DNA of 64,000 nt from Poseidonia sp. (lineage in GTDB: Archaea; Thermoplasmatota; Poseidoniia; Poseidoniales; Poseidoniaceae), in the NCBI GenBank assembly GCA_038124565.1, contig JAYPCE010000003.1, positions 5,910-69,909 of the forward strand, in the 5' to 3' direction. Below the pieces are notes generated by a model. It searched no databases and was not told the DNA's origin. It saw only the letters and a program-made list of their open reading frames with translations. Every line of letters begins with the position of its first letter. Position 1 is the stretch's first letter. Position numbers and translations under genes: made by a program. Below, piece after piece: positions 689 to 60,400 of this stretch.

Positions 689-2242
689 TTACTTGATGCG
701 TTCCATACGCTCTTGCTTTTGCTCGCCCACGTCGCGTAGCAAACGCTCTCGCAGTGCTTCGTGCAACCACATACCCTCGTCCAACTCCAGTAGCAAACCG
801 TGTTGGAGGAGGTTCGAGGGCGGTGGCCCATTCCATCCGATACTACCCGCCAACTTCTCCCATGGAATTGGTGCATGGGCCACGGCGAGCGTGGCCAACA
901 ACTCTTTTTCTTGCTCGGGCAATCGCGTTAGAATTTCTTCGTCCAAAAATCTCAGCCAGTCTTTGTGGGTGGGCTGACCGTACAGTTCAAGCAATTCCAA
1001 GGCCAAAGGATGGCCTCCAGTAGCCTGATGGATCTCTTCGGCAGCAGGAGATTCAGCGTTATCGAGAGAGAGCAACCACGCTTTAATGGCGTCCAAACTC
1101 AATCCCTTGAGCGGCATTTCACGCACCGTGTTACGAATGTGCACATCGCGTCGGTCGTAAACACTCAACTCCGTTCTCGAAACGAGCACCAACCGCAACG
1201 GTGCTTTTTGGGCGAGTTGCAACAGCGAACCGAGCAGGTGACGCGCATTTTCTGCGATATGGTGCACATCGTCAAGTACGATGAGCCAATAAGGCGGTGG
1301 CCCGCCAGCGCTGTCTTTGAACCGTTCACGAATGGTGTTTGCGTCCGTCATGTATGCCAGCAGACGCCGTCGCCATGCGTCAACGTCCATTTCACCTCCC
1401 GGCGTGAGCGGGAGCGTTTCGATGATGTTGTAGGGGTCATGGGATTCATCGATGCCAAAGCGGTGCAAGAGGCTGGTTGCCAACCCAAGGGCGCGGTCCC
1501 ATGGTTGACAGGTATACCAGCAAATGGAGAGGTAGGGGTCGTCTTCCATGTGTTGTTTCAACCAGTGTGCAACCAAGGTTGATTTTCCAATGCCTGCAAT
1601 ACCGTGGACGACCATGCAGGGGTGACGGTCACGAAACCATCCGTGCAAGGCGTCCAATTCAGCATCACGGCCGTACACAGGTCGGGTAACGGGAGGCTGG
1701 TTGGCGTAGGTTGCGTGAACACCGACCAGCGGTGTCAATCGTCCAGGTTGGGGCACTCCGTCGGCTTGCTCTGCTTTTTTGATGCTTCCAAATCGGATGT
1801 CGCCGTAGGTGAGCACGCCTTCGTGTTGGGCGTGTAAGAGAATTTGCAACAGGCTCAATTCTGTGGCCAACAACTCCGAGACTTCAGCGGCCTTCACTTC
1901 CAACAAGTCTCCGTCAAGATTTCGCACCAAGACCTTGGTTGAGTCCAACGCGGCTCGCCGCTGTTGGGCTTGAAGCCTGCCTTCATCGGTGAGTTGCCAT
2001 GTTTTTTGGCGGCGCTCATCACCTTGAACTGCTCGTGTGTGCTCTTCAACCAACGCCTCTCTCAACAAATCTCGCATCGTTCGGCTGACATTTGGGGGGT
2101 GTTGGGCACATGCTTCGGCGATGCCTGGGCGCGTCAAGGCGGGCGGGACCATGTAGCGGTCGGCCCATTGGTCGTTGGCTAAGAGGTGAAGCAGCACCCT
2201 GTCTTTGGCGGCGACGTTCACCTTCGGAATGTCACCGGCCAT
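689..2242 (-). CDS. STAND/AAA-type (Arch_ATPase-like) P-loop NTPase with N-terminal winged-HTH; ORF track extends to 2452 but ATG at 2242 (MAGDIPKVNV...) preferred
   Basis: Walker A GIAGIGKST, Walker B WLIVLDDVH. N-terminal region DRVLLHLLANDQWADRYMVPPALTRPGIAEACAQHPPNVSRTMRDLLREALVEE is wHTH-like. The 2452 extension would overlap the divergent gene at 2370 and its TATA. Confidence 0.6.
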   Translation of the reverse strand: MAGDIPKVNVAAKDRVLLHLLANDQWADRYMVPPALTRPGIAEACAQHPPNVSRTMRDLLREALVEEHTRAVQGDERRQKTWQLTDEGRLQAQQRRAALDSTKVLVRNLDGDLLEVKAAEVSELLATELSLLQILLHAQHEGVLTYGDIRFGSIKKAEQADGVPQPGRLTPLVGVHATYANQPPVTRPVYGRDAELDALHGWFRDRHPCMVVHGIAGIGKSTLVAHWLKQHMEDDPYLSICWYTCQPWDRALGLATSLLHRFGIDESHDPYNIIETLPLTPGGEMDVDAWRRRLLAYMTDANTIRERFKDSAGGPPPYWLIVLDDVHHIAENARHLLGSLLQLAQKAPLRLVLVSRTELSVYDRRDVHIRNTVREMPLKGLSLDAIKAWLLSLDNAESPAAEEIHQATGGHPLALELLELYGQPTHKDWLRFLDEEILTRLPEQEKELLATLAVAHAPIPWEKLAGSIGWNGPPPSNLLQHGLLLELDEGMWLHEALRERLLRDVGEQKQERMERIK

Positions 2243-2343
2243 GATGCTTGGTGAGGGTTTTGCTTGTTCAACGCTTGCCTGTTTGGTATGCGAAGTTTTC
2301 GTCGCGGTCGTTGATGCAAAAGTGCGCGTATAGACAACAACCC

Positions 2344-2350
2344 TTTTATG
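2344..2350 (+). promoter_or_regulatory. Putative TATA box (ttttatg) ~26 nt upstream of ATG 2370, consistent with a leaderless transcript
   Basis: Spacing typical for archaeal TATA/TSS in leaderless mRNAs. Confidence 0.35.
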
Positions 2351-2369
2351 CACATGAGGATGGGAAATC

Positions 2370-5300
2370 ATGGCGAAAAACTCGGATTTGACATCACTTA
2401 ACCTCCGGACCTTTTCTTTGGTGTTGTGCGGCCTGATGTTGCTCTCAGCCATGCCCTTGGTGAGCGGCGCAGATTCCGATGGAGACGGGTTTGAAGACAG
2501 CGTTGATGACTGTCCATGGGCTTATGGAACATCGACCGTGGACAAGGATGGCTGTCCTGATCGTGACGGGGATGGCACGTCAGATGGAGCGGATGGTTGG
2601 ACCTCCAACAACCCAAATTTCAGCGAAGAATTTCACATCTCCAATCTCAATGCATACAGTATTGATCACAACGCTGACGGAACGCTTGCTGTCGCAGCCG
2701 TTGACGACCGTGTACGTATTTACAACGCTTCCACCTACACCACCGTTGTTTCCTCAGCCGACCTTGTTGATGGCAACAACGCCTACGTGACCAGCGTTGA
2801 CTGGAGCCCCGATGACATGTACGTCGCTGCGACCCTAACCGACGACACGGCCGTTGTCATGTGGGCGAGCAACCTCACGGTGATTCACGACGGCATCACG
2901 CATTCGGGCGATACCCGAACCTTCTCTGATGTCGCCTTCATGACCAACAGCACGTCGTTTGCTGTGGTGGACGAGAACGGTGGCGGCTGGGGCGGTGGAA
3001 ACTGCAACGGTTGTGCCGTGATGCTGGTGAGCGTGGAAGACGGCCAAATCTGGCGAGAGGTCAAGCCTGCAGGCAACAGCGGTTCGTATTCATCGGTCAC
3101 CTTTTCTCCAGACGGCAGCGTTATGGCCGTTGGTGGTGACGGCAATGCCTACCTCATTGAGACCAACAACTGGACCACGCTTCGAGCCCTCAATCCAGGA
3201 ACCGGGGAAAACGTCAACGGCATTGAGTTCTCACCGGATGGCACGATGGTGGGCTTGTGCACCCAAGCCAACATGAACGGCGCTCGCCTCCGAGCGTTCA
3301 ACACGGCGACGGGCGCTTCCATGCTCGACAAAACCTCCACGAGCTCATGCTATGGCGTTGATGTCTCTCCAGACAACACCCAAGTCGCCTACGCCATCGG
3401 CTACTACAGCACCGACGGGGGCTCGGTGCTGGTGTATGAACATACCACGGGCTTGTTGGTTGACCGCATCCAACTCGCACGCGGCAACAATGCGTGTTCG
3501 CAATTTGGTGGTCAGAATCCCTGCGGCGATGTGAACGGCGTTTCGTGGCATCCAGATGGGTACCACATCGTTGCTGCGGTTGACAGAAATTACGAGGGTG
3601 TGTACTTCCTGTTTGCTGATATCGACCCCGATAATGACGGTTACAACTCCACCGACCAGGGCGATGGTATCGTTGATGACTTCCCCGACGATGGCACCCA
3701 ATGGACCGATACGGACGGCGACGGCTACGGCGACAACCCAGCTCCAGCCAACCAACCCGATGCGTGCATCTCCGTCGCTGGTACGTCAACCGAAGACCGA
3801 TACGGATGCCCTGACGCTGACGGCGACGGATGGTCGGATGCCGGAGATTGGGCACCGTACAACCCCGACCAGTGGGTTGATGCTGATGGTGACGGCTACG
3901 GTGACAATTACCTGTACGAGGTAAATGAATACCAGTTCCATGTGAACCAGTCCGGTGATGCGTTCCCCAACGATGCAACCCAATGGAACGACACGGATGG
4001 CGACGGCTACGGTGACAATTACGAGAACGCCTCATGGACCTCCTATCGCCCAAGTGAATGGCCTGGCGTCTTGTTGACCTCAGCCAACGAACCAGACGCC
4101 TTCCCTCTTGACCGAACGCAGTACATGGACACAGATGGAGATTGGGTCGGCGACAACCCGAACAGCGATCGTGCTGATTTGTGCCCCAACCAATGGGGTG
4201 ATTCCCAGTACGACCGTCTCGGTTGTCCAGATGCTGACGGCGATGGGTACTCCGACCCCGATGCGGGGTGGCCAGCAACCACCGATTGCTTCGGAGCCGA
4301 TGCGTTCCCCGACGATCCTACGCAATGGTGCGATGAAGACAACGATGGATACGGGAGCAACGCCAACGGGAACAACCCCGATGATTGCCCTTCATCGGCC
4401 GGCACATCGTACATTGACCGAGCTGGTTGTGCCGACCGAGACGGCGATGGGTATTCCAACGCAGGCGACCCCTTCCCGGATGACCCAACGCAGTGGTCGG
4501 ACCGAGACGGCGATAACCGCGGCGACAACGCCAGCGGCAACAATCCCGACGCGTTCCCAGACGACACCTCGCAATGGAAGGACACCGACGGTGACGGTTA
4601 CGGCGACAATCCAGGAGGCAACAACGGGGACGCGTTCCCGACCGATTCGACGCAGTGGAGTGATGAGGACGGCGATGGCTACGGTGACAACGCTGAAGGA
4701 ACCGATGGAGACGTCTGCCCGATGGATTACGGTGAATCTCAGGAGCCCCTCAGCCGAGGATGTCCTGACAGCGATTTGGACGGCGTCACCGACCCGCTCG
4801 ATGCCTTCCCGAACGATCCTTTCCAGTGGGCCGATACCGATGGTGACGGCTATGGTGACAACACCAATGTCCCAAGCGGGGACGACTGTGTTGAAGAGTT
4901 TGGAAAATCGTTTGAAGAAGGTCGACAGGGTTGCCCCGACGCAGACTTGGACGGCTATGCTGATGTTGACGATGCCTTCCCAACCGACCACGAACAATGG
5001 GTGGACACCGATGGCGATGGCTATGGTGACAACTACTTCTGGGAGAACATCACGGTAGAAGATTCCGAAAACCCAGGCATGTTCATCACGTTGCGTGAAC
5101 AACGGGGCGACGCATTCCCCGATATTGCTTCGCAGTGGTCGGATATCGATGGTGATGGCTGGGGCGATAACACCAACAGTTCAAATCGCGTGGACAGTTT
5201 CCCGTTGCGCAACAGTCAATGGCTTGACTTTGACGGTGATGGCTTCGGCGATAATGTCACGGGTTACCAACCCGACATGTGTCAAAAAGTTCCCGGGACA

Positions 5301-5816
5301 TCAACTTCTGGCTTGGAGGAAGAATGGTATGGCTGTCCCGATGCTGATAGCGACGGTGTTGCCGATGATGCCGATGCCTGTCCATGGGACCCAGCATACT
5401 CGCTTGCGGCTGACAAGACCAAATGCACCATTACCAAAGATCCCAGTGCAAGCGGTAGCGAGGAGAACTCGGGCACCTTCTTGAGCGGAGAAACGAACAC
5501 CTTGGTCTGGATGGGCGGCGTGATTATCTTCATGCTCGCCCTCATCATCGTCGCTCAAGTTTCACGGGCTGCTGGAAAGCGCAAGGCGGTGGCGGCCAAG
5601 CGAGAGGAGATGATGGTCCAAGCCTCATTTGCCGAGGAAGAGGAACGCCGTCAAGCATGGATTCAGCATTACATTGCTGAAGGGAATTACGCCGAAGCCC
5701 GAGCCTTAGGGTGGGAAGGTACGGAAGGCTTGCCTGAGTGGAAACAATACGAGATGCAGCAGCAAGCCGCGCAAGAAGCAGCCATTCCCTCCATGTTGGA
5801 TTTGGACAGCCCCTAG
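2370..5816 (+). CDS. Large Ca-binding surface protein A: signal peptide, short N-terminal TSP3-like repeats, PD40/TolB-like beta-propeller, ~20 thrombospondin-type-3-like repeats, C-terminal TM anchor, conserved Trp-rich cytoplasmic tail
   Basis: N-terminus MAKNSDLTSLNLRTFSLVLCGLMLLSAMPLVSGA is signal-like. Blade motifs VDWSPDDMYVAAT, VTFSPDGSVMAVGG, IEFSPDGTMVGLC, VDVSPDNTQVAYA, VSWHPDGYHIVAA (SPDG signature). Repeats of form FPxDxTQWxDTDGDGYGDN / CPDADGDGWSD. TM LVWMGGVIIFMLALIIVAQV then tail ...RRQAWIQHYIAEGNYAEARALGWEGTEGLPEWKQYEMQQQ. Many N-x-S/T sequons. Confidence 0.9.
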   Translation: MAKNSDLTSLNLRTFSLVLCGLMLLSAMPLVSGADSDGDGFEDSVDDCPWAYGTSTVDKDGCPDRDGDGTSDGADGWTSNNPNFSEEFHISNLNAYSIDHNADGTLAVAAVDDRVRIYNASTYTTVVSSADLVDGNNAYVTSVDWSPDDMYVAATLTDDTAVVMWASNLTVIHDGITHSGDTRTFSDVAFMTNSTSFAVVDENGGGWGGGNCNGCAVMLVSVEDGQIWREVKPAGNSGSYSSVTFSPDGSVMAVGGDGNAYLIETNNWTTLRALNPGTGENVNGIEFSPDGTMVGLCTQANMNGARLRAFNTATGASMLDKTSTSSCYGVDVSPDNTQVAYAIGYYSTDGGSVLVYEHTTGLLVDRIQLARGNNACSQFGGQNPCGDVNGVSWHPDGYHIVAAVDRNYEGVYFLFADIDPDNDGYNSTDQGDGIVDDFPDDGTQWTDTDGDGYGDNPAPANQPDACISVAGTSTEDRYGCPDADGDGWSDAGDWAPYNPDQWVDADGDGYGDNYLYEVNEYQFHVNQSGDAFPNDATQWNDTDGDGYGDNYENASWTSYRPSEWPGVLLTSANEPDAFPLDRTQYMDTDGDWVGDNPNSDRADLCPNQWGDSQYDRLGCPDADGDGYSDPDAGWPATTDCFGADAFPDDPTQWCDEDNDGYGSNANGNNPDDCPSSAGTSYIDRAGCADRDGDGYSNAGDPFPDDPTQWSDRDGDNRGDNASGNNPDAFPDDTSQWKDTDGDGYGDNPGGNNGDAFPTDSTQWSDEDGDGYGDNAEGTDGDVCPMDYGESQEPLSRGCPDSDLDGVTDPLDAFPNDPFQWADTDGDGYGDNTNVPSGDDCVEEFGKSFEEGRQGCPDADLDGYADVDDAFPTDHEQWVDTDGDGYGDNYFWENITVEDSENPGMFITLREQRGDAFPDIASQWSDIDGDGWGDNTNSSNRVDSFPLRNSQWLDFDGDGFGDNVTGYQPDMCQKVPGTSTSGLEEEWYGCPDADSDGVADDADACPWDPAYSLAADKTKCTITKDPSASGSEENSGTFLSGETNTLVWMGGVIIFMLALIIVAQVSRAAGKRKAVAAKREEMMVQASFAEEEERRQAWIQHYIAEGNYAEARALGWEGTEGLPEWKQYEMQQQAAQEAAIPSMLDLDSP
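3597..5400 (+). repeat. Coding tandem array of thrombospondin-type-3-like calcium-binding repeats (D-x-D-x-D-G-x-x-D / QW-D-TDGDGYGDN) in protein A
   Basis: Repeated DTDGDGYGDN, DADGDGWSD, DRDGDGYSN, DEDNDGYGSN units visible in translation. Causes long antisense ORF artefacts (3298..4278, 4392..5102 etc). Confidence 0.85.
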
Positions 5817-5839
5817 CCTTCCAAATTCCAACAATTTTG

Positions 5840-5850
5840 ATATATTATAC
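5840..5850 (+). promoter_or_regulatory. Putative TATA box (atatattata) ~20-26 nt upstream of ATG 5867 of protein B
   Basis: AT-rich box in the short gap between paralogs A and B; implies B has its own promoter and a leaderless mRNA. Confidence 0.4.
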
Positions 5851-5866
5851 GTTATTGTCGCTGTGC

Positions 5867-8800
5867 ATGGTTCGCCTTCAAGCGGTCAGCATCATCTGCT
5901 TTCTGCTCCTGCAAACGGCGGTTCTACCCACGGCTGGAGCAGTGGATGCAGACGGCGATGGCATTGACGATGCATTGGATGACTGCCCCCACGCATCGGG
6001 CGATTCCACGGTGGATCGTCAAGGCTGCCCCGACAAAGACGGTGATGGGCGTTCGGACCTCAACGATGCATGGACTTCACGGTACCCAAGTTTCTCTCTT
6101 GATGCAACACTCACCGCGACGACCGATGTGTTTGATGCAGCCTATTCTCCTACGGGCGAGTTCGTTGCCATTCGTGAAAATCAATATGTGAAAATCTACA
6201 ACGTTTCTACCCAAACGTTGCTCCAGACCAGCGCTCAAATTTCGAGTTCGTGGTGGGGCAACCGCTTATCTTGGAGTCCCGATGGCACCATGCTCGCGGC
6301 CTCCATTTCCTCAGGCGTCAACATTTACTGGACCTCAAACCTCACCGAAATCCAAACGGCCATTGCCCCCACTGACCCAGGAACCGTGCGCGATGTGGCG
6401 TTTTTTCCCAATGGCAGCGGCTTCATTGCAGTAGGAGAAGGGTGGGGGTCCAACAGTGGGAAGGTCTACGCAGCCAATGCGGTGAACGGTACGATCTGGC
6501 ATTCCTTCCAACCCAACAACGAGTCGTCCTTCTCCTCCGTCGCCCTCTCTCCCGATGGAAGCCGTGCTGCAGTTGGCGGAGATGGCGTCGTTTATGTCAT
6601 CAACACCTCTTCGTGGCAGGTGACCCGAACCATCAACCATGGCTCACAAAATGTAAGGGGCGTGGATATTTCTCCCGACGGGAATTGGATCAGTGCCTGC
6701 GATGATACGGGGCTTGCCTACCAAAGCACAGTTCTTCGGGTCTGGGGCTTGGACAACGGGACCCAAGTCATGGCCAAAACCGGGACTTCCCGATGCAGCG
6801 AGACCCGGTTCTCACCTGATGGAAGTCAAGTAGGGTATTCCTTCCACTTTTACACCGATGACGCTGCATCGGTGACCATCTATCACATCAACTCGAATTC
6901 ATTGGTGACCCGCCTGAGTGCTCGGCCCACAGGCGACCCATGCACCGACACAACTGCGCCCCCGAATGTATGTGGGAGAATGTACGGGTTTGACTGGCAC
7001 CCCAACGGGTTGGACATTATCTCGGTGATGGGGCAAGACAACGAAGGCGTGTATTTCTGGTCGTCCAATTTGGACCCCGACAACGACGGGTGGAACACCT
7101 CCGACCAAGGGGACGGCAGAGTGGATGCCTTCCCCGATGAATCAACCCAATGGAACGACACAGATAGCGACGGGTACGGTGATAACCCTTCGCCAGCCTT
7201 CCAACCCGATGCTTGTCCGTCTGTTCAAGGAAATTCAACCGAGGACAGGTTTGGTTGTCCAGATGGCGATGGTGACGGTTGGTCGGATGCAGGCGACTGG
7301 GCGCCCAACGATGCTTTGCAGTGGCTTGACACTGATGGGGACGGTCATGGAGACAACTACCACTTTGAATTGGACGCCTATCAATTCCATCTCAACCAGA
7401 CCGGCGATGCCTTCCCCAACGATCCAACCCAGTGGAACGATACTGATGGTGACGGCTACGGGGATAACTTTGCGAATGCATCATGGACAACATACAGACC
7501 CGTAACATGGCCAGGAGAGTGGCTGAGCGTCGCTGTCATGCCAGATACTTTCCCCCTTGACCGTACGCAATGGAACGATACTGACGGAGATTGGTACGGT
7601 GACAACCAATTTGGCTCTCGTGTGGATGCGTGCCCTACCGAATGGGGCGATTCAGAAGTGGACCGCTTGGGTTGCAAGGATAGCGATGGGGACGGCTATT
7701 CTGACCCGACGATGGATTGGCCGGCTACCACAGATTGCTACGGGGCCGATGCTTTCCAAAACGATGCCACGCAGTGGTGTGATGAGGACAACGATGGGTT
7801 TGGTAGCAACCCCAACGGCAACACGCCCGATGATTGCCCGTCAACGGCAGGAACATCAACGATTGACCGATATGGTTGCGCAGACCGTGACGGCGATGGA
7901 TATTCCAACGCAGGTGACCCATTTCCCGATGACCCCACTCAATGGTCGGACCGAGACGGTGACAACCGCGGGGATAATGCCAGCGGAAACAACCCCGACG
8001 CTTTCCCTGACGACACCTCGCAATGGAAGGACAGCGACGATGATGGCTACGGAGACAACCCAGGAGGGACCAACGGAGACACATACCCAAATGACCCGAC
8101 CCAATGGAGCGATACAGACGGTGATGGATACGGCGACAATCCAAACGGAACTGAGGGCGATGTGTGTCCACTCGAATACGGCGAATCCTTTGATGAAGAC
8201 ACCCGGGGTTGTCCCGACAGCGATCTTGACGGTGTGACCGACCCGTTGGACGTGTTTCCCGATGACCCGTTCCAATGGGCCGATGCTGACGGTGATGGGT
8301 ACGGTGACAACACGAACGTACCGAGTGGTGATGCATGTGTTGAGGTCTTTGGGACCTCGACTGAAGCCGGTCGTTTAGGGTGTCCCGATAGCGATGTTGA
8401 CGGATATGCTGACCTTGATGATGCGTTCCCTAACGATCCTGAACAGTGGACGGACACCGATGGCGATGGTTACGGTGACAATTACTTCTGGGAAAACACC
8501 ACTGTAGAAGACAGCGAAAACCCTGGAATGTACATCACCCTGCGTGACCAGCGCGGTGACGCCTTCCCAGAGATCGCTACCCAATGGTCCGACATGGATG
8601 GTGACGGTTGGGGCGATAACGACAACAGCTCCAACCGAGTAGATAACTTCCCGCTCCGCGCTTCGCAATGGCTTGATTTTGACGGAGATGGGTACGGTGA
8701 CAATGCCGTGATGGGCGCCTATCAACCGGACGCTTGTCCGCTCGTTCCTGGGACATCGGTCACTGGTCTTGATGCGGTTTACTTCGGGTGTCCCGATGCT

Positions 8801-9268
8801 GATAACGACGGCGTTTCCGATGATGCAGACCAGTGCCCTTGGGACCCTATGTACGCCACCTTGGCTGACAAAGCGAAGTGCACCATTCTCTCCGACCCGA
8901 CCTTGATGTCAAACGAAGAATATGCAGATGACTTGGCCGGTGGCGGTAACTTGCTCCTGTACGTTGGCGGCATCATTGCGTTCTTGCTGGCCCTGAACAT
9001 CGTCGCCCAAGTCTCGCGGGCGGCTGGGGCGCGAAAAGCGGTCGCCACACGCGAAGAAGAAGAACGACTGAAAGCAGAAGCAAACGATGAGGAAGAGCGA
9101 CGCCAAGCATGGATTCAACATTATATCAGCCAAGGGAACTTTGCTGAAGCCAGAGCGCTAGGTTGGGAAGGTACCGAGGGGTTGCCTGAGTGGAAACACT
9201 ATGAAATGCAGCAACAAGAAGCCCAAGAAGCATCCATTCCTCAGATGTTTGACCTCGATAATCTGTGA
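5867..9268 (+). CDS. Large Ca-binding surface protein B (tandem paralog of A; ORF track start 5738 overlaps A, ATG 5867 MVRLQAVSIICFLLL... preferred)
   Basis: Same architecture as A. Propeller region is divergent (~30-35% identity by eye). Repeat stalk ~75% identical with a 50-aa block identical to A. TM LLLYVGGIIAFLLALNIVAQV and tail ...RRQAWIQHYISQGNFAEARALGWEGTEGLPEWKHYEMQQQ. Confidence 0.9.
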   Translation: MVRLQAVSIICFLLLQTAVLPTAGAVDADGDGIDDALDDCPHASGDSTVDRQGCPDKDGDGRSDLNDAWTSRYPSFSLDATLTATTDVFDAAYSPTGEFVAIRENQYVKIYNVSTQTLLQTSAQISSSWWGNRLSWSPDGTMLAASISSGVNIYWTSNLTEIQTAIAPTDPGTVRDVAFFPNGSGFIAVGEGWGSNSGKVYAANAVNGTIWHSFQPNNESSFSSVALSPDGSRAAVGGDGVVYVINTSSWQVTRTINHGSQNVRGVDISPDGNWISACDDTGLAYQSTVLRVWGLDNGTQVMAKTGTSRCSETRFSPDGSQVGYSFHFYTDDAASVTIYHINSNSLVTRLSARPTGDPCTDTTAPPNVCGRMYGFDWHPNGLDIISVMGQDNEGVYFWSSNLDPDNDGWNTSDQGDGRVDAFPDESTQWNDTDSDGYGDNPSPAFQPDACPSVQGNSTEDRFGCPDGDGDGWSDAGDWAPNDALQWLDTDGDGHGDNYHFELDAYQFHLNQTGDAFPNDPTQWNDTDGDGYGDNFANASWTTYRPVTWPGEWLSVAVMPDTFPLDRTQWNDTDGDWYGDNQFGSRVDACPTEWGDSEVDRLGCKDSDGDGYSDPTMDWPATTDCYGADAFQNDATQWCDEDNDGFGSNPNGNTPDDCPSTAGTSTIDRYGCADRDGDGYSNAGDPFPDDPTQWSDRDGDNRGDNASGNNPDAFPDDTSQWKDSDDDGYGDNPGGTNGDTYPNDPTQWSDTDGDGYGDNPNGTEGDVCPLEYGESFDEDTRGCPDSDLDGVTDPLDVFPDDPFQWADADGDGYGDNTNVPSGDACVEVFGTSTEAGRLGCPDSDVDGYADLDDAFPNDPEQWTDTDGDGYGDNYFWENTTVEDSENPGMYITLRDQRGDAFPEIATQWSDMDGDGWGDNDNSSNRVDNFPLRASQWLDFDGDGYGDNAVMGAYQPDACPLVPGTSVTGLDAVYFGCPDADNDGVSDDADQCPWDPMYATLADKAKCTILSDPTLMSNEEYADDLAGGGNLLLYVGGIIAFLLALNIVAQVSRAAGARKAVATREEEERLKAEANDEEERRQAWIQHYISQGNFAEARALGWEGTEGLPEWKHYEMQQQEAQEASIPQMFDLDNL
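7066..8850 (+). repeat. Coding tandem array of TSP3-like Ca-binding repeats in protein B
   Basis: As for protein A; antisense ORF artefacts 7725..8336, 7856..8275, 8047..8457, 8375..8725. Confidence 0.85.
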
Positions 9269-9325
9269 TTTTTACGCATGGTTTGCACCGCTGTCCTTTC
9301 AAAGGGGAAGCGACCATGTTTTCAC

Positions 9326-11899
9326 ATGGGCGAGAAGCCGACAGGCCGACTTTTGTTGGTGGCGGGGTTGCTTATGGCTTCCCTCTTGGTCGGTTTCGCT
9401 TCAGCTACGTTGAGCGATGTGCGCCTTGAAACCGAAGTGAGTGAGGCCCTCGGGCAGCCTTGGTACGATGCTGACCAACCCCTCGTCTTCACACCGACCA
9501 TGTACAATGATGGTGACACCGCCGTGACCGTTCCTATGAACCCGGATTGCCGTTTCGTGTTGAATGTTTACAACGAAAGCGGCGTCATGGTGGTCGACGG
9601 TGATGCGTTGTGCCCAGATAAAGAGCAAGGCCAAGACTTCTTTGCCGGAGAAAACCACACATTTGACGCCGTGGAATGGGGGATGAAAGATGCTGAGGGT
9701 GAATGGCTGCAAAGCGGCACCTACACGGTTGAATTGATGCATACCAAGACCGGCCTTACTCAACACGTTGTTGCCACGGTCCAAACACCGGTCACGCTTC
9801 CCGACGGGTTGACTTACTCAGTGGAATGGATGCAGCGAACGGCGGAGGCCGACGGTGCTTGGGTGGGCTTGGTCAGCCTGCACAACCCCACCGCCCAAGC
9901 GGTTGACCTTGACCTTCTTCCTGCGTGTTCGATGGAAGTCCGAATCGGTACAGAGTCTCGCCTTGGCGCCCCCTGCTTTGGAGAAGTTGAGACACTGATG
10001 CCCGGCGAAGTGATGCTCGTTGACCAACTGGTGGTTGCCTCACCCGAAACGCTGGATGTCCGCATTTCAACGCCCGGCAAGTCCTTTGTCCATGCACAAA
10101 CCTTGCAGGGCCTCACCGGGCCGATGGCGCTCCAAGCCACACCATCGCTTGCCCTCAACACCAACGAAGCACGGGCCTTCGGCCAGGGCGATGTTCTCGT
10201 CAGTGAACTTCTGTTGACCAGCACCAGCCTCGAAGACCAAACGATGGCCTTCACATCCACATGCAAGGCAGAACTTTGGGTGCTCGACGATTTGGGTCAT
10301 GTGGTGTTCGACTCACGCGCTGACAAAACGTGTCAGACCATTGAGCTCGAAGATTCACTCAAAGCCGACTCTCCCATGACCTTTACATTGCCACAATGGG
10401 GCTTCTTTGACAACGATGGCTGCCGTGTTCAGCCGGGAACCTACACCGTTGTCGCTGAACTCCCTGAATTCAACCTCGCCACCCTGCAGACGGTGGAGTA
10501 CAGAGATGCCGAGGCCAATCCTTGCACCTCGTCCTCTTCGCTGACATTGGAGGCGACTTCGTCGTGGTTGGATGAAGACACCTTGCAGGTCAGCACGGTG
10601 ATGTCCAACGAAGGCGATGCTCACTATCTTCGGATGGTACAACCGTGCACTTACGCGTTGGACTTTGTTGACACCTCGGGCGTCTCGGTTCACCGGTTCC
10701 AAGCCCTGTGCGGCGAATACGATGGACGCAAGGTGTTTGTTCCCAGCGGTGCAGCGGCCTTGATGTTTGATGTGCTTGAGGTGGAGATGGTGCAAAACGG
10801 TCAGCCATTGCTACCCGATGGCTTCTACACCCTTGAGGTCACCATGTTCGCCTCGTCCGATGTGGTCGCCACCATCGACCTTGCTTGGCCTGAAACCTTC
10901 ACGGAGGACGTGAATACCGAACCCGAAGAAGAACAACCCGTCCTCAATTCATACGAACTTACTGGCACTTGGATGGGACTCTTGACCGAGACCGGCACAT
11001 GCTATGTGATGGAAGTCGGCGACTCCACAGTTTTGCTCTCCCACGCACGAACCCTGCCTTCCTGGACGCCAAACGGTGCTGTGCAAGGTATCTACGAAGT
11101 CGTAGACACGACCCCTTCGCCTGCGTGTGCCACCTTTTCCGCACCTTCCGTTGAAGTGGTGGAGGTCTTGATGGAACAACCTCTTGCTCAAGAACAACAG
11201 GAATCGGTTGCAGAGACGGTGCTGGTGGAAGAAGACCCTGAGGTGGCGATTGACCCCGTGGTTCCGGTTGTGACGGTGATTGTGACGGCTTCAGTGCTCT
11301 CCATCTTGGGTATCGTGGTGGCCACGAACGAAGGGTTGAGGCTACCGGCCACCATGGCTGGCTTGTGGTTCATCGGCCTGTTGGGCAAAACGCATGAGAC
11401 CACCGACGGGCGGTATCAGCGAGGCCGATTGATGGGGTACCTCACGGCCAATCCGGGCTGTCACTTCCGTGCCTTGATGAGTGCCCTTGACATGAGCAAT
11501 GGACAAATTACGCATCATTTGCGAGTACTGGAAGCCGAAGAAAACGTGTGGCGAAAGAACGATGGACGCTTGGTTCGCTATTACCCGCTGACCAACCAGT
11601 TGCATCCAAACACCGCTGACGATGACCTTCCTGTACCGCCGCTTTCACCAGACCCGAACAGTCTGCAGGGCAAGATCTTGAATCTGCTCGACCACGACGG
11701 GGAATTGGGTCAATTCCCGACCCAAGCAGAATTGGCCAAGCGTCTTGAGAAGAGCCAGCAATTGATTTCTCACCACCTGCGAACATTGCAGAAGTATGGT
11801 TTGGTTGAACGGCGAAAGATGGGCGTGATGAATCGCTACAAGTTGACTCGCGAAGCCATCTTCCTGCTCGAGACAAGCGATGATTTCGGCCAAAACTGA
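9326..11899 (+). CDS. Single-pass membrane protein: signal peptide, four Cys-paired extracellular beta-sandwich-like repeats, TM, two cytoplasmic winged-HTH (ArsR/MarR-like) domains; putative membrane-tethered transcription regulator (ORF track start 9278)
   Basis: MGEKPTGRLLLVAGLLMASLLVGFASA signal. Four repeats each with a Cys pair (NPDCRF...ALCPD; LPACSMEV...APCFGEV; TSTCKAEL...DKTCQTIEL; VQPCTYAL...QALCGEY). TM VVPVVTVIVTASVLSILGIVVA. Two wHTH units: RGRLMGYLTANPGCHFRALMSALDMSNGQITHHLRVLEAEENVWRKNDGRLVRYYPLT and QGKILNLLDHDGELGQFPTQAELAKRLEKSQQLISHHLRTLQKYGLVERRKMGVMNRYKLT. Confidence 0.85.
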   Translation: MGEKPTGRLLLVAGLLMASLLVGFASATLSDVRLETEVSEALGQPWYDADQPLVFTPTMYNDGDTAVTVPMNPDCRFVLNVYNESGVMVVDGDALCPDKEQGQDFFAGENHTFDAVEWGMKDAEGEWLQSGTYTVELMHTKTGLTQHVVATVQTPVTLPDGLTYSVEWMQRTAEADGAWVGLVSLHNPTAQAVDLDLLPACSMEVRIGTESRLGAPCFGEVETLMPGEVMLVDQLVVASPETLDVRISTPGKSFVHAQTLQGLTGPMALQATPSLALNTNEARAFGQGDVLVSELLLTSTSLEDQTMAFTSTCKAELWVLDDLGHVVFDSRADKTCQTIELEDSLKADSPMTFTLPQWGFFDNDGCRVQPGTYTVVAELPEFNLATLQTVEYRDAEANPCTSSSSLTLEATSSWLDEDTLQVSTVMSNEGDAHYLRMVQPCTYALDFVDTSGVSVHRFQALCGEYDGRKVFVPSGAAALMFDVLEVEMVQNGQPLLPDGFYTLEVTMFASSDVVATIDLAWPETFTEDVNTEPEEEQPVLNSYELTGTWMGLLTETGTCYVMEVGDSTVLLSHARTLPSWTPNGAVQGIYEVVDTTPSPACATFSAPSVEVVEVLMEQPLAQEQQESVAETVLVEEDPEVAIDPVVPVVTVIVTASVLSILGIVVATNEGLRLPATMAGLWFIGLLGKTHETTDGRYQRGRLMGYLTANPGCHFRALMSALDMSNGQITHHLRVLEAEENVWRKNDGRLVRYYPLTNQLHPNTADDDLPVPPLSPDPNSLQGKILNLLDHDGELGQFPTQAELAKRLEKSQQLISHHLRTLQKYGLVERRKMGVMNRYKLTREAIFLLETSDDFGQN

Positions 11900-14822: not shown

Positions 14823-17489
14823 TCATTCGGCTTCATCAATGGATGCCGGGCGTGGCGGAGGGATCTTTGTGACCGTATCAAGCGGTGGACCTGGCCGTTG
14901 GTTATTGGTGTAGATGGCCAGCCCAACAACCACCAAGGCAAGCAAGAACAGCCATCCAGCAAGCCCCCAACCCTCGTCCTCTGTGTTGGATGAAGGGGAA
15001 AGACCGCTGGCGTCACACCCTTGTTGGTCCACAACGGCATTGGCTGCTGAATTCAGACAGAAGTCATAGGCATTGACCACACCGTCACCATCGTCATCCA
15101 GTTGGAATTGACTGCATCCATTCGATGAAATTTGGTCTGCTGGGTCCGAGCGCGGACATTCATCCAACGGGTCAAGCACCCCGTCTTGGTCGTCATCATC
15201 GTCCTCCACGGCATCAATGCAGCCGTCACCGTCCATGTCCTGACCGGCTTGCGCAACGCCAAGCATTCCTTTCGGACATCGGTCAACGCCGTCCAGTACC
15301 CCATCGTTGTCGTCGTCGCCGTCTTCGGTAGCGTCAGCACATCCGTCGTTATCGTGGTCCATGGAGGCAGCATCAGCGATCCAATTTTTCGCACCAAGCG
15401 GGCACGCATCATCAACATCCAACACGCCATCGTCATCGTCGTCTTCATCCATTGTCTCGTCCATACAACCGTCCCGGTCGTAATCGTTCAAGTTGATTGA
15501 AATCCACGGCGTGAGGTCGTTGGGGCAATTGTCATCGGGAATGGTAATCCCGTCCCCGTCTTTATCGGCATCACAGAGGTCACCGATGCCATCGTTGTCC
15601 AAATCGGCTTGGGTGGGGTTGGCTACAGCAGGACAATTGTCTGCCTGGTCCACGAACCCGTCGCCGTCAGCGTCAATATCCGCACAACCATCGGCCTCAA
15701 TGTCGTTCTCTTCATCGGAAATCCAACCAACGGGGCCTTTGGGACACAGGTCGTTGGTGTCAAAGATACCATCTTCATCATCATCCAAATCTTCGGTCGC
15801 GTCTCGGCATCCATCGCCGTCGTGGTCTGAGTTACTGTTGGCCAGCCAACCGACTTCGCCGCTCGGGCAATCGTCGTTCAGGTCGGCAACCCCGTCGCCA
15901 TCATCGTCGTCGTCGCACTCGTCACCAAAGGCATCTCCATCCAAGTTGGCTTGGTCAGGGTTGGCCAGTTTCGGACAATTGTCAACACCGTCCAGCACCC
16001 CATCCAAATCAAGGTCGGTTTCGTACAACCAAACGCCCATGTCAAGTTGATTGCGTTGGTCAAAGGTGTGTCCGCCATACGTACCGTCAGCGTTCGCATT
16101 GAAGGCGACCACAGGTGAACCCGTGGCGCTGAAGATCAAGTCCGTAGCGAGGTCGTTACCTGGACCCCCACCAGAGATGGCCCAGTCCCACGCTCCGCTG
16201 GCTTGGCGTTGGGCAAGGAACACATCGAAGTGGTTTCCATCGTTGATGCCATCGATATCGGTCAATGTGTATTCACCCAAGATGATGCTCCCCGTGGTTT
16301 CTCCGACCACGACGGTATCGCCTTGGTCCGAGACGTGAACGTCTTTCACGCGGTCGGCTCCGTTCCCACCGAATCCAGCGGCATGCAACCATTCGCCCGA
16401 AGGAGAGAGATGCGCTTCGTAGAAATCAATCCAAACGGCATCATCAACGGCATGTACACCAAATGTGAGGTTCTGCAAATAATCCCCGACCACACTGATG
16501 CCGCCTCCGGGCCGTCCGGCGCAGGCGACCGCCGTGGTGTCATCAGACCCGCCTGCTTGGGCTACCCACTGCCAACTTGCCGTTGAATAACTGCCCACAG
16601 CTACGTTGAGCCCGCCGGTGCTGTTGACCTCATGTTCACCAAAAATCACCATGTCCATGAAACTTGTAGCAAAGTAAGTTTGGCCAGTGGTGTCTTTGCA
16701 CAAGGAACCGGTGTCGTCCAGCGCTTGGGTGGAAAAGACGGTGTGGAGGCCAATCAAACTCCCTTGGTCGTCCATCATCAACAAAGCCACCGCCTCTTGA
16801 GTAACGCTGGCGGGAGAGGTGAGGTTGTTAACGACGAGTTCACCACGGTGCAAGACGGCCAGATGGATCTCATCGTTTTGCGTGACCATAAGGTCAACCA
16901 CCATCATTTGGTAGGGGTTGGAAAAGGATGTGGCCCAAACCCACTCACCGTTGGGTGTCATGGTCGCCAAAAACACGGCGTTTTCGTCGTCGTTAGCGCT
17001 TTTGTTGATGGGGTCAAGGTCGCCAAGTGTCAGGTTGCACGGGTCGCCTAGCGTCATGTCACAATAGGTTCCAGCGACAACGATGGTGCCGTCGCTCAGC
17101 GCTGCCATGGCGGCAATGTTGTCCAAGCCGGAACTGCTGCCGTTGGCGCTGTAGCTCCAATTCCCTTCTTCATCAATCCAACCGATGAAGAAATCAACGC
17201 CAAATGATGAATCCTCGCTTGAGAATCCGATAACATCGCCATCGAAGGCTATGTTTTGTTCAAACGAACCGGCCACGATGATGGAGCCGTTTGAAAGCGG
17301 GACCATGGAGGACACTTGTTCGCTACTTGACCCACTTGCACTGGCCAGCCAACCTGAGGTGTTTTCTTCCCCGGTCAACAGAGGGCCGTCGTTATTGAGG
17401 GTCACTGCATCGCCGTACTGAACCAGCGGCATAGTGGAAAATCCAAGCAGGGCTGCCGCCAAGAGGACATGGAGCACCGTAAAGCGCAT
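14823..17489 (-). CDS. Large Ca-binding surface protein C: signal peptide, beta-propeller-like N-terminal region, TSP3-like repeat array, C-terminal TM anchor (ORF track start 17537; ATG 17489 MRFTVLHVLLAAALLG preferred)
   Basis: Repeats DLDLDGVLDGVDNCPKLANPDQANLDGDAFGDECDDDDDGDGVADLNDDCP... in canonical TSP3 form (D-x-D-x-D-G-x-x-D-x-x-D-N-C-P). TM GWLFLLALVVVGLAIY. Short P-rich tail. Stop codon abuts leuS stop (convergent). Confidence 0.9.
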   Translation of the reverse strand: MRFTVLHVLLAAALLGFSTMPLVQYGDAVTLNNDGPLLTGEENTSGWLASASGSSSEQVSSMVPLSNGSIIVAGSFEQNIAFDGDVIGFSSEDSSFGVDFFIGWIDEEGNWSYSANGSSSGLDNIAAMAALSDGTIVVAGTYCDMTLGDPCNLTLGDLDPINKSANDDENAVFLATMTPNGEWVWATSFSNPYQMMVVDLMVTQNDEIHLAVLHRGELVVNNLTSPASVTQEAVALLMMDDQGSLIGLHTVFSTQALDDTGSLCKDTTGQTYFATSFMDMVIFGEHEVNSTGGLNVAVGSYSTASWQWVAQAGGSDDTTAVACAGRPGGGISVVGDYLQNLTFGVHAVDDAVWIDFYEAHLSPSGEWLHAAGFGGNGADRVKDVHVSDQGDTVVVGETTGSIILGEYTLTDIDGINDGNHFDVFLAQRQASGAWDWAISGGGPGNDLATDLIFSATGSPVVAFNANADGTYGGHTFDQRNQLDMGVWLYETDLDLDGVLDGVDNCPKLANPDQANLDGDAFGDECDDDDDGDGVADLNDDCPSGEVGWLANSNSDHDGDGCRDATEDLDDDEDGIFDTNDLCPKGPVGWISDEENDIEADGCADIDADGDGFVDQADNCPAVANPTQADLDNDGIGDLCDADKDGDGITIPDDNCPNDLTPWISINLNDYDRDGCMDETMDEDDDDDGVLDVDDACPLGAKNWIADAASMDHDNDGCADATEDGDDDNDGVLDGVDRCPKGMLGVAQAGQDMDGDGCIDAVEDDDDDQDGVLDPLDECPRSDPADQISSNGCSQFQLDDDGDGVVNAYDFCLNSAANAVVDQQGCDASGLSPSSNTEDEGWGLAGWLFLLALVVVGLAIYTNNQRPGPPLDTVTKIPPPRPASIDEAE
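15140..16130 (-). repeat. Coding TSP3-like Ca-binding repeat array in protein C
   Basis: Consecutive D-x-D-x-D-G-x-x-D...C-P units; produces antisense ORFs 15132..15500, 15493..16050. Confidence 0.8.
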
Positions 17490-17584
17490 GCCTTTGGATA
17501 GAAGTCCTGCATAAGAACCTCGCGTGCTGGCGTGCATCCACCTACGGGGGAGGCTTCATTGAGTGTCGCCGATGCAATCCTCTC

Positions 17585-57419: not shown

Positions 57420-60400
57420 TCACCCTTGCGCTTCTTGGTGATGCTTCGCCAAGGCTTCGCGGTGTTCGGCGACATAGGTTGCCCATTGGTCTTCAGTCCA
57501 GCCTTCGGGCACAGGTCCACCCAACCATTCCTCATAGGCAACCAAGGTCCATCCTTCTGGTACAAATGAGGGGAGATCGGCGGGAAGTGGCGAATCAAAC
57601 GATGTGCCAGCGCTGTCTTGTTCAAACAGGTCTTCAAGCGAAGCGAGTTCCAATGCATCGCTCGCACCCCACGCCGTCTCTTCTGAGGCTGTCTTTCTCA
57701 AACGCAGCACGACGGCACTCAAGGTGACGATTAGGAAGGCTGCTACAGCACTCACTTTCAGAATGGCAGATTGGGTGTTTGTGTTCTGTACCGGCGTTTG
57801 GTCGTTCAGAGTGTTGTCGACACAGGTCGTGCAAGCGAGGGCAGGGCCCACCATCATCTCGTCTTCGTATGCGAAGCTTTGCTGGAGGTCATCCACGCAG
57901 TTGATGGTGTAATTCAGCGTGGTGTTCGCTAGTGACCGCGGAATTGGATACTGCCAGGAGAGTTCATTGACAAACACACCTTCGGGGCCAGCCATCATCG
58001 TCGATTGGCTGAGCATGTCACCATCTTCGTTGTAAAGCGCGTAGGCACAAATCACTCGGTCCAATCCATCAAGGTCTGATAGGGTCACGTTGGTGAACAG
58101 GTCTTCTTCGGGGAGGGGCGTTGATACTTCGATGGAAACAAACTCGGTGGGTGCGTGCTGGAACATGAGGTCCAGCGAGGCAGATTTCACAAGTCCATCA
58201 ATGTCCGATACAGAAAAAACTGCCTTTCCCGGGCCGTCAAGCATTGAATTGTCCAGTTTCAGCCGATAGGTTCTCCACACCACATCATCGGATGTGCCTG
58301 CACTCCAATTGCAGGCTTCAGGAGGTTGTCCCTCCGGCCACAACAACATGTCGGTTGAAGGAGCATTGATCGCCCAGCCCTGCTGTGTCAGTTGAGAACT
58401 CTCACCCTCCAACGGTCGGTCGCTGGCCACTCCAACCATGAGGATGGCTATTTGGCCGAAGGTCATGGTGTCAACCGCCCCTTCGGCATCGCAGGCTTCT
58501 ATGAAGAGAATTTCTGGGGGGGTTAACAAAAACGGGACGTTGAGTTGAGCGATGGTTGCCCCACCATGCTTACCGATACCCGACGCTTCAATGAACAACT
58601 CTCCGGCTTCCAACGGCACATTCAGTTGGTCGAGCCTGACCAATGTGCTGTTTTGACCTGCTTGAATGTCGAGCGGGACTTGAAGTGTTTCACCGCCCGG
58701 CCACTGCACCATGACATCTCCAACGAACGATGTGCCTGGGTCATCCACATCCACCACATCAATTCGCAACACTTCCTCGCCATTTCCGACCACCCTATCC
58801 AAAACGGTTCCTAAAGACGATTCCACTTGTATGTGCAATTGTGGCGGCATGTCGGCCACTCGGATGGTCCTCTGAAGAAGCAAGGAGCCCGTGGAGGAGC
58901 GCAATTCGAACACCGCATCTTGCAGTGAACCCCCAACCTCTAAGGAAAACGGAGCGGTGTAACAGTAGAGGTGCGTTGCAGATTGGGAAACATAGGTTAC
59001 ATTCCCGACAGTTCCACGTGAGGCGAGGAAAAAGGGCGTTTCTTCTTCGACGCGATAGTCAACATCCAAGACGCAAGCCGTGAGTTGAGATTCTTGGTGC
59101 CGGTACAATCCGGTGGCGGGGCGGTTCGGGAGGTTGGAGGCGTTGTTCCATCCAGCATCGTCCACGCCTTTGACATGCGGTCCAAACCACGTCGGTGGGG
59201 AATCCACCACCCTCGTCACGTTGGGGTACATGATGCGTTGACTCATGTTGCTGGCGTCGCGAACGGTGGCACGTAGCGTAATCCAGCCCAAGGAGGCGTT
59301 TGAAGGAACAACGAGACTCGCTTCCCAAGTTTCGGTGTTGATTTGACCGAGGGTGATGAGCGACCAGTTGTCGGGGGACAAACTTTGGTTTTCGGAAACA
59401 ATCTGCCATTCCAGCGAGGCGCTCGTGACATTGACATCATCGGTGGCCTTCACTGAGCAGATGGTGTAGGCACCTCTGGTGATGGCAGAAGCGCTGCAGT
59501 AGACTTCGTCAATGCTTGGGGGAGCGTTGACAACAACGCTGAACGGGAACAAGTTGTTGGCAAAGTTCCGTTCAGGCGTGCTGTTGTCGTAGCGGATGCG
59601 CAAATCCAGATACCCGTCCGAAGTTGGAACGACGGACATATTCACCAAGGTTCGGCTGCCGGCCTGGTCACCTGCAGGAAGAACGAGGTTGGTTTGGTTA
59701 AGGACGGAGTTGCCAAGTACAGTCTGCACCAACAAGGTGCCGTTGGATTGTGACATCCCGGTGTTTTCAACGAGGATTTGGATGGTCGCAGGTTCTCCAA
59801 GGTTCATGTTGCCGAGAACCCGCACATCAACGATGTTGATGTCATGGAACATGTCGGCGTAGGGGGCCATCTTTGGGTCACCGACCACCACACCCATCCA
59901 CCCCGAGATTCGGTTGGCCGCAGCGTGACTTTCTGCCAAATTGTATCCAGATGCATAGATTGGAAGATACATGCTGGGCAGCCCCACAGCTGTGAGGTAG
60001 GGTTCGTACACGTAGCCCTTCACGCCTGAAACGCCGTCTTCAAGCAGGTCGGCCACCAAGGATTGGCCGTAACTGGTCCCCCAATTGAACGAACGCCCTC
60101 CTGTTGAGACGGCGGTATCGGCAATGGAGCCGTTGACCCAATCCATGTGAGGGCGAATGGCCCGAATCAACACCGTGTCGATGTAGAATGCACCGGATGT
60201 TGATGTTGAAGCGATATCCAAAGGCACCCGGACCTTGAATTGTGTGGCCTGAGCGTCGGGGCGGAAGCGAAGGAATTGAGACGCCCAAGTGGTGGTGAAC
60301 GTTCGGTCGTTTGAGGTATTGGTCGATAGCACCGTACCGTTGCTGTCCAAGGCCGTAACCTCCAGGGCAAACGCACCATCCACTTCGCCCACACGCTTGC

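Follow-up and report, generated by a model that had tools for sequence, protein, structure and literature searches.

Why do two neighbouring genes whose silent sites have diverged to saturation encode a stretch of more than fifty amino acids without a single difference? The question is raised by two tandem surface-protein genes, A and B, both on the + strand, of the marine archaeon Poseidonia (Marine Group II), which lie in the 64,000-nucleotide stretch of DNA that was analysed as a whole and is called the window here. The initial annotation of the locus had taken the identical stretch as a sign of strong purifying selection on that specific segment, for example a protein-protein or Ca-dependent interaction site, and had argued against recent gene conversion. 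Here, we place the block within the two proteins, measure selection on it across the family and ask what has kept it identical.

Results

Architecture of the two proteins

The layout of the two genes is as follows.

2370..5816, + strand: gene A, 1148 aa (open reading frame and translation)
2619..3617, + strand: A-type WD40 seven-bladed propeller (the 'head'), residues ~84-416, predicted from AF2 strands and Foldseek
3624..5459, + strand: stalk of A, residues ~419-1030 (repeat parsing, DNA repeat families and AF2)
5634..5813, + strand: conserved part of the cytoplasmic tail of A, residues ~1089-1148; the B counterpart lies at about nt 9086-9265
5817..5866, + strand: A-B spacer, 50 nt, of equal length and alignable sequence in the other two tandem loci (L003 and L084)
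5867..9268, + strand: gene B, 1133 aa from the ATG at 5867 (translation)
6092..7066, + strand: B-type WD40 propeller, residues ~76-400, predicted
7073..8914, + strand: stalk of B, residues ~403-1016, collinear with the stalk of A

The mechanical reading frame of gene B opens at a GTG at 5738. Its true start is the ATG at 5867, because the ortholog P0037/B3 begins at the same MVRLQAV. Gene A encodes, in order, a signal/TM helix, two N-terminal TSP3-like units, the WD40 propeller, the TSP3-like stalk, a TM helix and a cytoplasmic tail, and gene B has the same order of parts with a different type of propeller. In each protein the stalk takes up ~600 aa and the tail that follows the TM helix ~90 aa. 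More than 2000 homologs of A/B were found at E < 1e-20, and the best of those with source names are labelled as Poseidonia or Candidatus Poseidoniales (Marine Group II archaea); gene A is 99% identical to P0001 and 82% identical to its Poseidonia orthologs.

The heads are recognised by profile and by predicted fold alike. Pfam WD40 scores 49.6 bits in A and 43.7 bits in B against a cut-off of 27, and the AF2 model of A (mean pLDDT 80.5) has 28 strands in residues 84-416, a predicted seven-bladed propeller that Foldseek matches to 5yzv (E 1e-22, TM 0.87).

How far have the two proteins diverged? Overall identity between A and B is 61.5%; by part it amounts to 34% in the propeller, ~75% in the stalk (range 73-86%; 75% outside the block) and ~74% in the TM helix plus tail. 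Synonymous sites between them are saturated gene-wide (pS 0.77), which makes the paralogs old and rules out recent conversion.

The stalk resembles thrombospondin type 3 repeats

In both proteins the stalk can be read directly as ~20 units carrying D-x-[DN]-x-[DN]-G, of the form (D)AFPxDxTQWxDxDGDGYGDN or FPxDxxQWxDxDGDG(Y/W)GDN, set among seven Cys loops (C-x12-20-G-C-P-D, continuing as xDxDG), and the positions of acidic motifs and Cys loops are invariant across 95 homologs. AF2 models the stalk at pLDDT 80-90 almost without regular secondary structure, which is how confidently predicted Ca-wire repeats should look. The TSP3 repeats of thrombospondins and COMP, and of the bacterial OmpA-family, MtsC and TraB proteins, share with this stalk the tandem acidic D-x-D-x-D-G-x-x-D motifs, an extracellular location, the Cys-bracketed loops C-P-...-G-C-P-D-x-D-x-D-G and a predicted fold lacking regular secondary structure. 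They differ from it in that the dominant Poseidonia unit, FPxDxxQWxDxDGDG(Y/W)GDN, has no cysteines and in that profile matches fall far under the family cut-offs. Neither A nor B matches Pfam TSP_3 (PF02412) at E ≤ 0.01, and the stalk alone finds no Pfam family at E ≤ 10, while a neighbouring gene at 14826-17537 matches TSP_3 at 9e-25. A PDB sequence search with the stalk returned one weak match, to the TSP3-like repeats of the OmpA-family structure 5wtl (E 0.0037), and NCBIfam gave only sub-threshold matches, among them throspo3_MtsC from Myxococcus MtsC (E 0.0017). Since Pfam TSP_3 is silent on the stalk, the case for Ca2+ binding is one of motif resemblance.

A 53-residue block is identical in A and B

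The longest run of identical residues between the two proteins measures 53 aa, the runners-up being 18, 16 and 15 aa.

4425..4583, + strand: block in A, residues G686-D738, GCADRDGDGYSNAGDPFPDDPTQWSDRDGDNRGDNASGNNPDAFPDDTSQWKD (GCADRDG...SQWKD)
7874..8032, + strand: block in B, residues G670-D722, identical in protein to the block in A

The block consists of the second Cys of the fourth Cys loop followed by two consecutive Ca-type repeats with short linkers, DRDGDGYSNAGDPFPDDPTQW and SDRDGDNRGDNASGNNPDAFPDDTSQWKD. Its AF2 confidence (pLDDT 73-86) is slightly below that of the neighbouring stalk. At the DNA level the A and B copies differ at 20 positions, all of them third codon positions and all synonymous, so that 38% of the block codons carry a silent difference; of its 51 synonymous codons, 20 still differ.

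These figures correct the initial annotation in its details while leaving its main observation in place. The identity it described is real, but the block, given there as 50 aa, is 52 aa long in the string that was quoted and 53 aa with the preceding G. The start assigned in A, 4429, is one base off and out of frame, and both ends overshoot: the quoted string spans 4428-4583 in A (from 4425 with the G) and 7877-8032 in B (from 7874 with the G). The differences reported as about 17 and all synonymous are indeed all synonymous, but number 20. Together with the gene-wide saturation (pS 0.77), they bear out the argument against recent gene conversion. The claim that the C-terminal tails show the same pattern holds as well: the last ~60 aa are ~86% identical, with pN 0.07 and a saturated pS of 0.82, and include identical runs of 13 and 18 aa. 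The nucleotide identity of the tails is 78% (DNA repeat family D6). In the quartet of Aw and Bw, the genes of the window, and A3 and B3, their orthologous tandem pair at L003, the synonymous codons of the tail follow the ortholog pattern at 21 of 70 and the conversion pattern at none.

Could such a run arise by chance? At a uniform identity of 75%, a 53-residue run has a probability of 0.75^53, about 2e-7 per start, which is negligible. The run is thus beyond chance, but it is accounted for by heterogeneity among sites. Among family pairs with 70-80% stalk identity, an identical block occurs in 5 of 496 (1%), and the median is ~6-7 differences. The closeness of the B block is not specific to the A gene beside it: the B block is 0-2 residues away from the blocks of many A-clade proteins (P0002, P0003, P0004, P0006 and P0013). 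B and its own ortholog B3 differ in the block by 33 nt and 3 aa.

The block is the peak of a conservation continuum

Nei-Gojobori dS between A and B is undefined, with pS > 0.75 in most windows. It was replaced by an amino-acid-stratified test of codon differences and by 37 phylogenetically independent ortholog pairs of moderate divergence, drawn from 89 genes (metagenome loci, L001-L003, L084, L085 and the window). In these pairs the block has pN 0.032, pS 0.563 and pN/pS 0.056, whereas pN/pS averages 0.096 over the stalk and ~0.20 over the propeller. By pN the block comes 9th among 1100 windows, and the lowest of these, residues 695-747, overlaps it. Low nonsynonymous change beside normal silent change in independent lineages means that the region is under purifying selection. 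pS is flat along the gene (~0.55 outside the block); therefore there is no constraint at the DNA level.

The 95-sequence alignment gives the same picture, with 34 of the 53 block columns conserved at ≥90% (rank 1 of 1096 windows) and a mean column identity of 0.865, followed by independent windows at 0.84, 0.84 and 0.81. Other stalk windows reach pN/pS values of 0.058-0.08. The invariant positions of the block are generic motif residues, namely the D and G of DxDxDG, FP, QW and GDN, whereas ~8 linker positions vary freely, and the block is not invariant in orthologs, with 54 variants among the 89 genes. The strong purifying selection proposed for this specific segment is therefore confirmed as selection (pN/pS 0.056 at normal pS) but not as something specific to the segment: the block is the peak of a continuum, under ordinary purifying selection, and no special new element. 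The main reason for this position is its composition, nearly all motif with hardly any linker.

Heads and stalks have separate histories in the family

Tandem pairs occur only in the window, in L003 and in L084/L114 among 165 loci that include 80 metagenome loci and 80 GTDB species representatives. B is found in only some of the close relatives. The closest A orthologs on long contigs stand without a B gene, namely P0002 and P0003 (81-82% identical) and the gene of the GTDB representative Poseidonia sp. BS301-5m-G57 (90%), and the gene order in B-less genomes is AAA_16 - A - BsuPI/HTH - LeuRS.

In L084 (GCA_038106355.1, contig JAYODQ010000027.1), the two genes A84 and B84 are identical at every one of 1,822 nt in stalk and tail, up to 25 nt before the stop, on a short-read MAG contig in which near-identical copies may have been collapsed in assembly. 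The propellers of the same two genes are 24-58% identical in amino acids, and similarity to the window is seen in the 50-nt spacer as well as in the final ~25 nt of A84. As judged from the comparison of sequences, a B head seems to have been joined to the resident stalk in a recent event of duplicative recombination or conversion. Gene conversion or duplicative recombination thus occurs in the A/B family at large.

The B-type propeller of the window shares 93-94% of its residues with the heads of P0061 and P0121, both from divergent genomes. Across the window, L084 and L085, B-type propellers are 90-94% identical in amino acids, with 14-19% nucleotide divergence and a silent-codon difference fraction of 0.34-0.49. 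In contrast, the flanking LeuRS and AAA_16 of the same genomes are 63-70% identical in amino acids at 36-40% nucleotide divergence, and the silent-codon difference fraction of LeuRS between the window and L085 is 0.62. The B-type head therefore looks horizontally transferred. In L085 it sits on the sole gene at the locus, joined to a different stalk. Throughout the family, propeller identity is bimodal (~0.3 or ~0.6-0.7) at any stalk identity between 0.6 and 0.85. Since head type is decoupled from the stalk and the B heads behave as described, heads and stalks differ in history. B and its ortholog B3 are themselves a mosaic, with 0-2% nucleotide divergence at both ends and 20-27% in between.

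Discussion

What has kept the block identical in two old paralogs? The block is probably the most slowly evolving part of the stalk of a Poseidoniales surface protein, a structurally constrained pair of Ca2+-type repeats in which both paralogs keep the clade consensus under purifying selection. The stalk, built of acidic repeats like those of thrombospondin type 3, would form a rigid extracellular chain on which a variable propeller head is presented. Judging from motif resemblance, the invariant D-x-D-x-D-G and G-D-N residues would bind Ca2+, and the F-P and Q-W residues would pack the chain. Where two repeats follow each other with unusually short linkers, as in the block, nearly all residues would fall on motif positions. 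In A and B, as old paralogs, selection on the protein would then have removed replacements while silent sites drifted, leaving the consensus in both. The role that we infer is structural, in giving rigidity and packing, and not that of a site dedicated to a ligand. Several observations count against this explanation. Perfect identity lies in the low tail of the family, at 1% of the pairs with 70-80% stalk identity. The block of A and B has fewer synonymous differences than expected, and B is further from its own ortholog B3 there (33 nt and 3 aa), so that an older local conversion could have contributed. The stalk gets no score from Pfam TSP_3, and the pLDDT of the block lies slightly under that of the stalk around it.

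Such a conversion, of intermediate age, would have reset the block and its flanks (A residues ~640-760) between the tandem copies, and the identity would reflect less elapsed time in addition to selection. The L084 pair attests that the family undergoes conversion or duplicative recombination, and several signals in the window point the same way. The block has 20 synonymous codon differences where 27-28 are expected (z about -2, amino-acid-stratified and uncorrected), alignment columns 640-760 have 39 where 56 are expected (z -3.7 against the stalk background, also uncorrected), no such deficit appears in the other A/B pairings (A3-B3, Aw-B3 and Bw-A3), and the best nucleotide match between A and B is the block region itself, at 85% over 148 nt. 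However, the dip around the block is lost as a conversion signal in a permutation scan that corrects for the choice of window (p = 0.39; best window z -2.65). The synonymous sites of the block in the quartet Aw, A3, Bw and B3 divide into 3 with the conversion pattern, 2 with the ortholog pattern and 1 cross, counts too small to be informative; region 641-760 of B is equally near in protein (0.86-0.88) to Aw, P0002, P0004 and P0013 and so has no particular affinity for the gene next to it; and the 20 synonymous codons that still differ speak against a reset. An older local conversion at the block is possible but unsupported, and we consider it unlikely. The overall similarity of the A and B stalks may descend from an old conversion or recombination event. 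Conversion belongs to the biology of the A/B family, yet it probably does not account for the block in the window.

Does the block instead serve specifically for docking, be it to a protein partner, in an oligomerisation contact, to the S-layer or to a host or particle ligand, so that its constraint exceeds the needs of the repeat structure? The block tops the conservation ranking, although only marginally over several other stalk windows, and its pLDDT slightly under that of the flanking stalk would be compatible with such a role. It holds the conserved arginines R690, R712 and R717 (69-77 of 89 genes) within an otherwise acidic stalk, and Poseidoniales thrombospondin-like genes have been proposed as adhesion factors (PMC6461757). 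However, its invariant residues are mostly generic motif residues. The block also contains an RGD tripeptide, but the R is replaced by Y in 18 of 89 genes; the type 3 repeats of thrombospondin-1 contain an RGD as well. No evidence points to a dedicated interaction site of the kind offered in the initial annotation, and we regard a docking site as improbable. An even fainter prospect is a constraint on the DNA or RNA (an embedded regulatory element, an antisense gene or a recombination signal) and not on the protein. Long antisense and out-of-frame reading frames overlap the block region mechanically, but silent differences occupy more than a third of its codons in A and B, its pS in the ortholog pairs equals the gene average and only the protein reading frame is conserved. 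A DNA-level element is effectively refuted by silent sites that vary freely.

How do these proteins relate to what has been described? Rinke et al. 2018 (PMC6461757) report 'thrombospondin genes' as widespread in the order Poseidoniales and propose them as adhesion factors. Their account covers these very organisms and, broadly, the class of secreted or anchored TSP-repeat proteins to which A and B belong; in the passages retrieved it treats the genes as a presence/absence trait, and the term 'WD40' is absent from its text. In the literature searched we found no description of the architecture of WD40 head, stalk and TM helix with tail, of the tandem paralogs, of the conserved block or of head/stalk mosaicism, and nothing specific on conversion in archaeal TSP3 proteins. 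A and B are new, uncharacterised TSP3-like repeat proteins, and the finding at the block is real but ordinary.

The more interesting lead is the modularity of head and stalk. As in the receptor-binding proteins of phages and the adhesin cassettes of bacteria, which combine variable heads with conserved stalks, discrete heads are here decoupled from the stalks that carry them. The likeness extends to a head module common to divergent genomes and to a tandem pair with a freshly homogenised stalk and tail. The difference is that the Poseidonia proteins are archaeal and chromosomal and occupy one conserved locus (AAA_16 - gene - BsuPI/HTH - LeuRS), that no dedicated recombinase or cassette array was seen there and that the mechanism is deduced from comparative sequence. 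We put forward tentatively, as a possibility that we would not yet favour, that A and B are part of a receptor system in Marine Group II whose stalk is constant and whose head can be exchanged. Discrete WD40 types might be swapped within and between species through homologous recombination in the conserved repeat stalk, tandem pairs might sometimes be made and their stalks then homogenised or deleted, and the block might serve as a hinge or docking element compatible with every head.

What, then, does the block mean for the biology of these archaea? Taken alone, it exemplifies in textbook fashion how purifying selection acts on the protein in a repeat stalk. Beyond that it does little more than show which part is best conserved in a surface protein that is abundant but uncharacterised and belongs to the dominant planktonic archaea of the ocean. 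In practice it can be used as a target for primers, antibodies or probes, or as a construct boundary for tests of Ca2+ binding. The family context is more useful than the block, with its modular evolution, its discrete propeller heads, the apparent transfer of heads across species and the freshly homogenised tandem pair. The modularity of head and stalk bears on surface variation in the uncultured Marine Group II and is relevant to the ecology of virus-host interactions and of particle attachment. If the exchangeable-head reading were true, the diversity of heads would reflect diversifying selection from viruses or from particle or prey ligands.

The surface-protein locus and its neighbours

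Gene A and its tandem paralogue B lie among the following features of the window:

689-2452, minus strand: AAA_16/STAND-like ORF, 587 aa
3624-5459 and 7073-8914: stalks of A and B, with the dominant repeat FPxDxxQWxDxDGDG(Y/W)GDN
4515-4523 and 7964-7972: RGD tripeptide (DNRGDN) in the stalk block identical in A and B
9278-11899, plus strand: 873-aa protein with a BsuPI-like domain and C-terminal HVO_0163-type and ArsR/MarR-type winged-helix domains
14823-17537, minus strand: 904-aa putative large surface protein, Pfam TSP_3 match (9e-25)
57420-62714, minus strand: 1764-aa putative large surface protein with PA14 and Laminin_G_3 domains

At its 5′ end, the AAA_16/STAND-like ORF shares 83 nt with the start of gene A. 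Its orthologs are 517-518 aa long, compared with 587 aa in the window, and the real start is probably around 70 codons downstream of that of the 587-aa ORF. The 873-aa BsuPI-like gene and the surface-protein gene are syntenic in every longer locus with a gene table that was examined (L001, L002 and L085, from other Poseidoniales genomes).

Even with matches up to E ≤ 10 included, no Pfam model recognises the stalk repeat of A and B, which apparently represents an unmodelled family akin to thrombospondin type 3 repeats. The RGD of the block is a feature in common with the type 3 repeats of thrombospondin-1, which also carry RGD. Since tyrosine replaces its arginine in 18 of 89 family genes, the tripeptide is probably incidental.

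Occurrence and probable recombination of gene B

Gene B (5817-9268 with the preceding spacer) is missing from the genomes carrying the closest orthologs of A (L001, L002 and L086; A 81-90% identical at the amino acid level), where the BsuPI/HTH gene directly follows A and is itself followed by LeuRS. At its 3′ end and in its downstream flank, B shows homology to the 3′ end and flank of these single-copy genes. B itself (5867-9268) is 94% identical to its ortholog B3 (L003:3908-7309), though unevenly so: nucleotide divergence is 0-2% at both gene ends and 20-27% around the block and in part of the propeller. This alternation of low and high divergence along the sequence indicates allelic recombination within the population.

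In another Poseidoniales genome (GCA_038106355.1, contig JAYODQ010000027.1, from which both L084 and L114 derive), the A/B tandem pair shares an exactly identical stalk-plus-tail tract of 1,822 nt (L084:4101-5922 and 7562-9383), both stop codons lying 25 nt past its end, whereas the propellers are only 24-58% identical in amino acids. Either recent conversion or duplicative recombination produced this identity, or it is a collapsed assembly of the metagenome-assembled genome.

Head types and stalks

Across three genomes, the B-type propellers (window 6092-7066, L084:6001-7500 and L085:6001-7400) are 90-94% identical in amino acids and diverge by 14-19% in nucleotides. LeuRS and AAA_16, the genes on either side in the same genomes, are far more distant, with 36-40% nucleotide divergence and saturated silent sites (silent-codon fraction measured for LeuRS only), which suggests that the head module has been transferred horizontally between genomes. 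The L085 locus has just one such gene, and it pairs a B head with a different stalk. When heads and stalks were compared across 122 aligned family members (A, B and P0001-P0120, their homologues), propeller identity was bimodal, either ~0.3 or ~0.6-0.7, whatever the stalk identity within the range 0.6-0.85. Such a distribution indicates that, in the aligned sequences, head types are discrete and decoupled from stalk relatedness.
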